Source: Bdellovibrionota bacterium (GTDB lineage Bacteria; Bdellovibrionota_C; UBA2361; JAAYZI01). Taken from it: a DNA stretch of 64,000 nucleotides. The position numbers are program-made. The stretch covers positions 512,001-576,000 of the forward strand of contig JBMNIF010000003.1 in NCBI GenBank assembly GCA_050950765.1, given 5' to 3'. The number at the start of each line of letters is the position of its first letter. The stretch's first letter is position 1. Below are positions 45,001 through 48,000 of this stretch, piece by piece.

Positions 45001-48000
45001 CATTTAGGTAATTTTTTGATGGTTATAAGTCTAAGACGGATTTTAAGGTATTAAAAACAGAAGCATTTTTGGGGAAATAGGTTTGACTAAGGAGGGAGGG
45101 AAAAAGCACTCCGCTAAAGTAGAACTACAATAAGTTAAGTAAAGATTCCGTTACATCAGAGCGCAGCGTGGTGTCTATCCTCAATTCATTTGCTCCGCAG
45201 GAAAGAGCTAACGGTGCAAGGGGATCGCGTGCATCTGCAACGTTTGCATGGAGAGATGCGATATTGTCTAAGAACAGCCTCGCCATAGCAGTTCCTCTAA
45301 GGTAGGTTTCAAACAACTCGCTCCCCTGCCATTCTAAATCAGGAACCAAAGAGAAATGAGAAAAGCCCGTGTTAAGATCTTGTAGCGATCTTAATTTATG
45401 CAGATGCAGCAAGCGAACCTCCCAAGAATCCCACTTTGCAATACGCATACAACAGGAAGCTTTAGCTCCAAACCTGTGCATCCACTTTACAACACGCAAC
45501 CAGTCCGGTGTGTTTTTAGCACTCCGTTTGCCTCTTTTTTTAATTAACATCTCACCGCCCCAAGCCGGAACGGCATCTAAACCAGCCTCAACTAAACGTG
45601 AGGCAACCTCTTCAAAAGTTAACGCCGCTGCTTGCGCCAAGTTGAAGATAACAGGAATTCCGATCCCTTCTAGTGAAGTTTTACAAACAGACTTTAATCT
45701 TCGTAACGCCTCCTCATATATTTCAAGATCAGTTGTTTGTTCAGAAAAAGGGTAGAAAATTAAGGTCGAAACATCATTAACCGTTTTTTTTGATAACACC
45801 TCAGACTCTGCTAGAAGGTTTTCCAAGTTCGTAAATCTTACGGAGAAATCGTATCCGATACTTCGCTTACTAAATAATCTGCTACGCAAGAGATCAGCCG
45901 CTAGAGCGAGATCCGCTAACGGCGCCTCTTGCACGACCTTACAGGCATCCTCAATACTTAAGCGTTTACCATCAAGCGTATCTTGCAAAATATCGCTTAC
46001 GCACCGATGTCTTTCATCATTAGGAGCTACACCTCGTATAACTTTTGAAATACTAACGTATGTTGCTTGCGGTAAAAGATCTTTTGTAACACACAATTCA
46101 TAAAACTTATTTAGATCTTCTTTAACTCGAGGAGTTAAACAACAAGCACCCTCACAAGAAGGCTCCTTACCTTCTTTAGTACACTTTTTAAGAGCAGCAT
46201 CTAAAACTTTATGAGTCTCCGAAGTTATAGCAGCCTGCCGTGTCGCCCAGATTAACGCCAGCAGGGGTAAGCCCGACCACTCTTTCCAACGTGTAGTTAA
46301 GTCTTCTGCATTGTATTCGCCACTAACTGCCTCCTGATCTCCGAGACAAACCAACCCTTCATCATCTTTAAGGTCTGCCAACATGATCGGACGTATAATG
46401 CGTACAATCCGCGGCACTATCTGCCAATGATCTTCCATTAAGAGTTTTAAGAAGAGCCCCACAGCACCAACTGAATCAATCAGATAGATCGTCTGCAATT
46501 TTTGTAATGATGCTTTGTGATAGAGCGTTATTTGTGCAGCGCTCTTGACAAGGTCTACTCCAAAATCCAAACCTAAACACCCACCATGCAAGGCGAAATC
46601 AGCCACAGAGATTAGTGCCACATCAACCTCACCCGCCATTAAACGCGTTATATTATCAGCAGGTGAATTCTCTTGGTAAAGAAATGAAGTATCTTTCGCT
46701 AACCTTTGATAGCCCTTTCCAAGTGTACCACAGCAATTAGCAATCTTTATCTTCTTCATGCCAAGATACCTCTATCATCTCCACCAAACACCGTTAAGAG
46801 ATCAATATAACTCGGAAGATGTAACGCCTCTACGGATTCGATATCAACAGCGCCATAGATTTTGCTATTAAATCCAAAAAATTTAAACATTCCTAAAGAG
46901 CTGAGAGAGGGGTATGACCCACTTATGCCACGCTCATTCAAGCCCTGCAAAACAATACTACCGACTGCTAGCCCCCTCATAATAAAGAGATCATAATCAA
47001 CACTTTCAGCTACTTTTTGTGAAGCATTAAAAGACTCTCCAACACACCAACTATCAATTACACCATCTGCAACACCTTTATTAAGTTGATGCAGCTCCCG
47101 CGCAAAAAGAGGGATCGTTCGGAAACGATCAAGTCTAGTATAAAGATCCACAGAGAACCCACACTCTTTCAGAATAGGAATTGCGCTTCGATACGTTGTT
47201 TCTCGCAAGCGGTCGAATTGCAACTGCTTTAATTGCAACAATACATTTTTTAGTCTATCCGAACGCAGGTCTCTATCACTTGAGCTTTCATGCAACATCA
47301 ACCAAGAATTAATCTGATCGACAGAGGGACCAACCAAAACGAGATCTTCTCGCTCCTCTTTTATCTTTGCGATAACGTCTCTCCACATCCCCATCAGATC
47401 ACTAAAATCAGAGATGTCTGAAAAAACATTAAGCCCGTTGTATAACTTTCCACTAAAAATAGTTGCGATCTTTTTTTCTACATACGAAAAACCACCCAGC
47501 CCCATCCACGATTCTAACGGTAGATGTAGCGCTGGAACGATCTGAAAGATCGGAGCTTCATCAACTGATGCCAAAGCTGATAATTTCATTAAGACAGATA
47601 ACGGCGCTTTTGTTAAAAGGAGCTCTATCTCTTCAACTTCAAAAGGTGTTTTTGTTGAAATTTTTTCTAAGATCTGAGAAAAGCCGAAAGCTGCTAAAGT
47701 GCTCTTCGTGAAGCGTTCCGAACACAACTTAGAATCGTTAAGTAGCCCCTCTACGGGAACAGACCTCCCTCTTATGATTCCACGTTTTGCCAGAGTTCCC
47801 ATGCTGCCGCCTCCACGCTGCCACAGACTAACAAAACTACCCTTTAAGGGCAAATGAACGAAACCTCAGGAACGGATATATTATCTCTTTCTTCTTACTG
47901 CATAAGTCTATAAAAATTACTGAAAAAGCCTCTGCAAAAAGCTTGCTCTAAGACGTTTAAGTGCCTTATGCTAGTGATATGGAGAATAACACCACCACCT

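Follow-up and report, generated by a model that had tools for sequence, protein, structure and literature searches.

Conserved degenerate futalosine-pathway proteins in a Bdellovibrionota bacterium: a pseudo-MqnE and a pseudo-MqnA–MqnC fusion predicted to form a non-catalytic heterodimer

The futalosine pathway, which is studied as a narrow-spectrum drug target, includes chorismate dehydratase (MqnA), aminofutalosine synthase (MqnE) and cyclic dehypoxanthinyl futalosine synthase (MqnC). Solved MqnE entries contain two chains each, and dimers of BioB-fold proteins are known. MqnC was reportedly reconstituted in vitro, alone, by Cooper in 2013, which indicates that this enzyme does not generally need a partner. 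Subunits without catalysis are familiar from other systems: plant PDX1.2 is a pseudoenzyme subunit born from a homo-oligomer, and UbiJ/UbiK and COQ9 are non-catalytic accessories of quinone pathways. There are few descriptions of cluster-less yet conserved radical-SAM proteins, and fewer still of complexes whose two partners are both dead. For MqnA, PMC9672406 describes substrate-assisted catalysis and calls Asn17 and Ser86 absolutely conserved; there, the Asn17Ala variant keeps its kcat with a doubled Km, and the Ser86Ala variant is nearly inactive, with kinetics that were not measurable.

The pair described here is encoded on the reverse strand of a Bdellovibrionota contig, within a window of 64,000 nucleotides (the whole stretch of DNA that was analysed). 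The host genome (G000) comprises 2.64 Mb, is 94% complete and is present in anaerobic digester and bioreactor runs. The features of the locus, in window coordinates, are as follows.

47810..47814, reverse strand: GGAGG ribosome-binding-like site, 7 nt upstream of the ATG at 47802
46756..47802, reverse strand: dead MqnE-like TIM barrel (P0002, the partner, 348 aa), with the cluster loop and the GGGAE/lid segment deleted
47755..47802, reverse strand: N-terminal MGxLAxxGIxxGxxV motif of P0002, a predicted beta-hairpin (homologue alignment and model)
47572..47604, reverse strand: central interface helix of the partner, residues 67–77, with Val70 and Lys73 (predicted complex)
46756..46759, reverse strand: ATGA overlap of the partner stop and the fusion start
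45125..46759, reverse strand: dead MqnA–MqnC fusion (P0001, the fusion, 544 aa)
46070..46759, reverse strand: MqnA-fold domain, P0001 residues ~1–230, with Asn17 replaced by Leu, Ser86 by Gln and SRTS by VGAV in the alignment
45128..46012, reverse strand: MqnC-derived barrel, P0001 residues ~250–544, with the cluster loop deleted
45890..45922, reverse strand: central interface helix of the fusion, residues 280–290, with Asp283 and Leu286 (predicted complex)

Both reading frames are intact and are translationally coupled through the ATGA overlap. The ATG start of P0002 at 47802 is favoured over a TTG at 47853 because GGAGG precedes it by 7 nt and homologues begin at the same methionine. A promoter scan of the locus was at chance level (5 versus 7.9). 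Of four sequencing runs mapped to all contigs, the one RNA run covered only short stretches lying outside the two genes.

In family searches, P0001 matched PF02621 over residues 32–193 (44 bits) and TIGR03699 over residues 343–526 (96.8 bits, far below the cut-off of 428.1), and P0002 matched no Pfam or NCBIfam family. The structural model of P0001 (pLDDT 85.0) contains a full TIM barrel of the MqnE/BioB type; its best folds are MqnE 6XIG for the barrel (E 2 × 10−18) and MqnA 7AN7 for the N-terminal domain, which agrees with the figures first given for this protein. The P0002 model (pLDDT 91.8) has MqnE as all of its top four fold matches (TM 0.61–0.63). The profiles of the two barrels are homologous to each other (hhalign 97%), and the partner profile (A4) scores live MqnE (E ~1 × 10−15 to 1 × 10−19) ahead of MqnC (E 1 × 10−4 to 1 × 10−8). 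A search of the ESM Atlas with P0002 gave no usable match (its ESM Atlas model has a pTM of 0.22), and a contig scan with P0001 as sole query gave none.

The first-pass annotation described both proteins as lacking the CxxxCxxC cluster motif, and the alignments bear this out: the loop that carries it (~20 residues) is deleted, not merely substituted, in both barrels. The motif occurs in 0/35 degenerate fusions and in 9/9 live fusions. Among the partner homologues listed (150 of the 222 found) the pattern is absent from 149, the exception being P0044, in which it is unconserved. An alternative cysteine motif, SCC of strand 5, was considered and rejected as unconserved. That the pair is non-catalytic and yet conserved is supported.

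Among 40 relatives, both genes are found in ten, where they are adjacent in all ten (one fusion being split by a contig end), which extends the annotated pattern of a fusion with an adjoining partner. The same-family genome (G001, listed as G023 in the first-pass annotation; 85% complete) gave no match to either gene, as had been noted. Across the class, dead MqnE occurs in 37 of 124 genomes, 34 of these also holding a fusion (25 dead, 9 live), and conversely 34 of 37 fusion carriers hold dead MqnE; these distribution figures are counts and not tests, since the kin are not independent. Within this order, dead MqnE is found in 21/91 genomes, all 21 with a dead fusion, the pair being missing from the other 70; outside it, dead MqnE is found in 16/33 genomes, nine with a live and four with a dead fusion. 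Dead MqnE stands alone in G061 and G047 and adjoins an MqnA domain truncated at the contig boundary in G059, while degenerate fusions without the partner occur in G017, G098 and G070. The usual gene order in the relatives is menG-ubiX-deadE-deadAC-mqnP and that in the sister orders menG-ubiX-deadE-(mqnE)-mqnAC; several loci outside the class show the full order menG-ubiX-deadE-mqnE-mqnAC-mqnP. A UbiA-family gene beyond the fusion in the sister orders was considered as MqnP and rejected, as it is a heme O synthase gene on the other strand. An APH-family kinase gene follows many pair loci and has no match in the host genome. Beyond the class there are at least 600 MqnC loci; of the 80 best, 15 have a cluster-less MqnE-like gene beside mqnA/mqnC, under labels of Vicinamibacteria and other Acidobacteriota, with one myxococcal and two proteobacterial labels. 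Three further myxococcal loci carry a remnant of 170–200 aa between ubiX (where in view) and mqnE.

With FastTree, the dead MqnE sequences of the class fall into a single group (100), which profile scores and the strand-7 region tie to MqnE. In a quick tree of 66 barrels, the dead barrels share a side with the live fusions, separate from the stand-alone MqnC of the order and from MqnE (a branch at 99), and have branches several times as long as those of live MqnC/E. All 12 dead fusion rows fall on one side with a support of 77, although these are quick trees with long branches and are compatible with either one or several deaths. The fusions first annotated as more distant do keep CxxxCxxC, but they do not constitute a separate case: the same dead MqnE gene accompanies the live fusions of the sister orders (9/9), and the partner thus appears to predate the death of the fusion. 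We infer from this that dead MqnE arose first and that the fusion died later.

No live MqnA, MqnC, MqnD or MqnE was found in the host genome, in line with the earlier reading that no active MqnA/C/E is present, and the same holds for UbiX, MqnP, UbiD, a second PF02621 match, MenD above cut-off and cytochrome bd. MenA and MenG are found above cut-off, with menG ~68 kb from the pair and menA on another contig, a combination that would fit a pattern of naphthoate salvage. Elsewhere in the class, 11 of the 25 doubly dead pairs are in genomes without a live MqnC/E match (some only 70–87% complete), seven of them with MenD; the pair carriers with MenD are G005, G020, G039, G068, G072, G076 and G123. 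Stand-alone mqnC often adjoins mqnD. The per-genome quinone pathway calls of PMC13386864 may bear on the scoring of this class. Persistence of a selected pair in a bacterium without the rest of the pathway points to an undescribed non-catalytic job.

The best explanation, put forward as a whole only tentatively, is that a non-catalytic subunit once paired with MqnC persisted after both chains had lost their catalysis, and that the pair is now a quinone accessory. A duplicate of mqnE would have lost its cluster and become the dimer partner of an active MqnA–MqnC fusion in an operon of the order menG-ubiX-deadE-mqnE-mqnAC(-mqnP). In this order of bacteria the fusion would then have lost both active sites, a separate mqnC (beside mqnD) or the classical men pathway having taken over the chemistry, and the pair would have been kept for its surface and not for chemistry. 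Its present role might be that of a scaffold accessory to late menaquinone synthesis on the membrane side, namely prenylation (by MqnP or MenA) and methylation (by MenG). The part of this proposal that concerns a dimer under selection is likely to be correct; the scaffold role is a guess from gene order and should be given somewhat less credence than the proposal as a whole. It is favoured because most loci keep the pair among menG, ubiX and mqnP, consistent with the annotation of the pair as usually lying beside menaquinone genes, and because the host keeps MenA and MenG.

Close behind the scaffold stands a role independent of quinones, in which the same heterodimer has been co-opted as a regulatory or structural partner of another protein and its place in the operon is inherited. 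MenG is present in 112/124 genomes of the class, most of them without the pair, which places this alternative near the scaffold and indicates that the pair is not needed for methylation. The pair also persists in genomes with three distinct quinone strategies (the futalosine route with separate mqnC/mqnD, classical men, and salvage with MenA and MenG in the host), is detached from men/mqn genes in G000, G068, G075 and G076, and carries an N-terminal MGxLAxxGIxxGxxV motif that is found in the dead MqnE of this order, is absent from the sister-order form and lies outside the predicted interface, where it could bind a new partner. Against such a role, most loci retain menG, ubiX or mqnP beside the pair, no other conserved neighbour was found (the APH-family kinase not extending to the host), and MenG is present in every pair carrier that is at least 91% complete, though MenG is near-universal and its co-retention was for that reason rejected as evidence. 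The adjacency of the pair to menG may itself be inherited. A quinone-unrelated job is unlikely but not negligible.

The two proteins probably form a heterodimer, as judged from the predicted complex. Its score of 0.82 (0.82–0.83 in three runs) compares with 0.34, 0.00 and 0.00 for the controls; the result first obtained for this pair was thus reproduced, although the best control scored 0.34 and not 0.00 as annotated. At least 69% of contacts are shared between runs, and the partner pLDDT is at least 81. The mark used is reached by 116/157 solved and 2/215 mismatched pairs, a rough guide for this pair, for which own alignments were used. In the model, the two barrels would pack against each other about a pseudo-twofold through their N-terminal helices and those that follow strands 6 and 7, with the MqnA domain outside. 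The predicted interface takes in these residues.

Fusion (P0001), reverse strand: residues 253–262, 280–290, 478–487, 510–521 and 535–544
Partner (P0002), reverse strand: residues 23–39, 67–76, 266–276, 298–308 and 337–340

The pairs 283–73 and 286–70 are among the closest contacts. Asp283 is present in 31/32 dead and 8/9 live fusions (Glu in the other two), with a hydrophobic residue at 286; in dead MqnE, residue 70 is hydrophobic and Lys73 is found in 55/62 and 44/63 homologues, whereas live MqnE has mostly Ala/Gln at the equivalents of positions 70 and 73. From the aligned residues, this pattern is complementary in the heterodimer, mismatched in either homodimer and already in place in the live fusions; outside this class the Asp283/Lys73 helix signature is not general. 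The myxococcal forms of 180–200 aa keep the N-terminal helices and the helix6–strand7–helix7–strand8 block and have lost strands 2–6, the middle of the barrel; what they retain corresponds closely to the segments of the modelled interface. The helix signature and the mini-form evidence are independent of the complex score.

That no heterodimer exists, each protein being a homodimer or monomer with a ligand-binding role of its own, is improbable. The complex score may echo a solved dimer, given the two-chain MqnE entries and the BioB-fold dimers, and a pseudo-twofold contact of the modelled kind is what the fold itself would lead one to expect; an unrelated control scored 0.34 with the fusion, conservation at the interface does not exceed that elsewhere (p 0.54–0.82), the sister-order dead MqnE has conserved strand-end motifs of its own, of the kind that a ligand pocket would keep (DRW, GPSTxE, IEGG, WFPW and RAPLS), and G061 has dead MqnE alone. 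The reciprocal Asp/Leu and Val/Lys pattern, however, matches the heterodimer and neither homodimer, and the genes are translationally coupled and co-occur in 34/37 cases in both directions. The annotated reading of a non-catalytic heterodimer is accordingly retained as probable, on the complex score relative to 0.34 and the reciprocal helix pattern.

Less probable still is that MqnE is supplied by the MqnA domain, either as a chorismate dehydratase that has diverged and stayed active or as a binder of 3-EPB, with the barrels serving only to hold this domain. Mapped via the canonical MqnA of G040, and with two fusions cut at the N-terminus left out, Asn17 is present in 0/34 degenerate domains compared with 12/12 live or canonical ones, Ser86 in 7/34 compared with 12/12 and Gly151 in 10/34 compared with 11/12. 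The loss of the Asn motif, which the first-pass annotation took as the sign of a dead MqnA, therefore stands as an observation but does not suffice alone, since MqnA, which uses substrate-assisted catalysis, tolerates Asn17Ala with kcat kept (PMC9672406); the case is made by the loss of Ser86 and of the SRTS loop, both replaced in the host. An active domain would be favoured by its being the sole MqnA-like sequence in 7/40 relatives that keep MqnC, MqnD and usually MqnE, and by the retention of Gly151-Asp152 and part of the Ser loop in family f2. Yet 10/40 relatives have MqnC/D and MqnE-type genes without any MqnA-like sequence at all, chorismate synthase was found in 0/5 genomes of family f13 and 0/4 of genus g3, both of which keep the pair, and the host lacks an MqnE that could be supplied. 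The idea that MqnA died because chorismate was lost was considered and rejected, as it fits f13 and g3 only, while the host and most pair carriers have AroC.

Five of seven relatives with the fusion had been credited in the first-pass annotation with an intact MqnA, and this did not hold. The strong PF02621 match tested (in G002) has AF1704 and TTHA1568 as its best solved matches and is MqnD, the other strong PF02621 matches in the relatives open with the same motifs, and an MqnA query among the 40 relatives retrieved dead fusions and the canonical MqnA of G040 only (1/40). Since the supposed intact MqnA of the relatives is MqnD, the order is mostly without a working MqnA. As PF02621 matches in this group represent either MqnD or dead MqnA, the first step of the pathway has no assigned enzyme, which is a warning for annotation.

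The pair is under purifying selection despite the missing catalytic residues. In seven within-genus comparisons with pS of 0.70–0.83 (near saturation), the dead proteins share 34–70% amino-acid identity and the neighbouring live genes 58–83%; the comparison of G020 with G123 gives a dN/dS of ~0.10. Within the species of the host, 40 of 188 strain differences were listed, 25 of them within the two genes (14/14 differences of one contig stretch and 11/13 of the other), representing one strain variant common to two runs that are not independent. Among those listed, the fusion has 12 synonymous and six replacement differences (pN/pS 0.15–0.24, p 0.003 or less), the partner six and one (pN/pS 0.05–0.08, p 0.006 or less) and a nearby ORF of unknown function five and six; no frameshift in either gene is among them. 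Neutral entrenchment, in which each subunit shields the hydrophobic face of the other so that single losses are harmful and the pair does nothing, would fit the both-or-neither pattern, the absence from 70/91 searched genomes of the order and the long branches, but is very improbable, as a single deletion could remove both adjacent genes and yet they persist across families at ~30% identity and with pN/pS of 0.05–0.24 within the species of the host.

If the dimer-partner origin is correct, it predicts an MqnE-fold partner for MqnC or for MqnA–MqnC. The origin of a pseudoenzyme complex is directly testable here because the class keeps the stages side by side: dead with live, dead with dead in the presence of the pathway, and dead with dead in its absence. 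A broader extension, speculative and rather doubtful, is that cluster-less MqnE barrels are an overlooked, recurrent structural subunit of the futalosine pathway and that MqnC (with MqnA attached) is heterodimeric with an MqnE-fold partner in several phyla; this class would have gained a second, non-catalytic function strong enough to retain the dead pair once the pathway had been replaced or lost, and its MqnE/C/D would run without a working MqnA and partly without chorismate synthase, implying an unknown pathway entry. Searches of the literature, with most subscription journals outside their coverage, found no description of such proteins, in line with the absence of papers first noted.

By the features tested, the pair belongs to none of MqnA, MqnC and MqnE and instead resembles a pseudoenzyme subunit system. 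MqnE (TIGR03700; PDB 6XI9/6XIG) is the top fold for both barrels and the strand7–helix7 region of the partner is MqnE-like, but P0002 lacks the CxxxCxxC loop and the GGGAE/lid segment, shares only 10–12% identity with MqnE and matches no family. With MqnC (TIGR03699), in the form of the live MqnA–MqnC fusions of the class, P0001 shares the two-domain layout, the operon position, the Asp283/Leu286 helix, an HGGY motif and the side of the tree; it differs in the deleted cluster loop, a score of 96.8 bits against a cut-off of 428 and strand-end residues without conservation. Its N-terminal domain has the Venus-flytrap fold of MqnA (PDB 7AHR, 2NXO and 6O9A; TM ~0.65 by target, profile E 1 × 10−14 to 1 × 10−18) but, relative to the enzyme as described in PMC9672406, has lost Asn17, Ser86 and the Ser109–Ser112 loop and is fused to a dead barrel. 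The closest parallels in kind are PDX1.2-type pseudoenzyme subunits and the UbiJ/UbiK and COQ9 accessories, in which a dead paralogue or accessory is likewise kept for contact with a pathway; here, in contrast, both subunits are dead, both derive from radical-SAM barrels, and the pair is still selected after the parent pathway has gone.

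A canonical MqnA, the chorismate dehydratase of futalosine step 1, is present in only one of the 40 relatives compared (G040), the genomes that carry the dead MqnA-MqnC fusion being included in this count. No MqnA-like sequence was found in ten of the 40 (G007, G009, G012, G016, G027, G028, G030, G031, G036 and G038), despite the presence there of MqnD together with MqnC/MqnE-type genes. Judged by gene content, step 1 has no accounted-for enzyme in the order of the source genome.

Chorismate synthase was not found in family f13 (none of five genomes) or genus g3 (none of four), while MqnC/D/E-type genes are retained in these genomes and UbiD also remains in G029 and G002, suggesting that an aromatic precursor is taken up. 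One contig of G033 (C28, locus L055) carries mqnB-like and mqnD genes of a type different from that of the other relatives, and may be foreign to this bin.

Variant arrangements occur elsewhere. A dead MqnE, lacking the CxxxCxxC cluster loop, is directly followed by a live MqnA-MqnC fusion in G063 (L147) and G064 (L160), and no live MqnE match was found in either genome (94 and 87% complete, respectively). Protein P0030 is a triple fusion of 911 residues consisting of a live MqnE, an MqnA-type domain and a degenerate MqnC-like third part without the cluster motif. In three Gemmatimonadota loci (L231, L259 and L260) the motif of MqnE is lengthened, with five residues between cysteines 1 and 2; these proteins otherwise score high and are probably active. 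Four myxococcal loci encode a mini dead MqnE of 170–200 residues, with the middle of the barrel deleted, immediately before mqnE:

L193, 1695–2240
L194, 2–508
L195, 2201–2800
L196, 1620–2225

In the window, the dead pair is flanked by the following features:

43004–44620, minus strand, transposase of the DDE type (PF01609), immediately downstream of the two dead genes
47961–49082, plus strand, 373-residue ORF, divergent from the pair, no family match
49097–52529, plus strand, nearby genes of a lipid-transport operon: MlaE (with STAS), ABC ATPase, MlaD-like and lipoprotein genes

The transposase, which has at least five near-identical copies and many more-distant ones in the genome, may explain the departure of the pair from its operon. 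The 373-residue ORF has a 27% identical paralogue on contig C2, and its 5' end is covered by one short contig in the RNA run. MlaE was assigned by family search and the other genes of the lipid-transport operon were read from sequence.

Cytochrome bd was sought in the source genome and not found. Two radical SAM genes with the BioB fold lie beside menG, as does a gene for a NuoG/hydrogenase-like Fe-S protein:

G000, contig C3, 91739–94390
L174, 4497–6035

The two radical SAM genes look like HydE/HydG in sequence.
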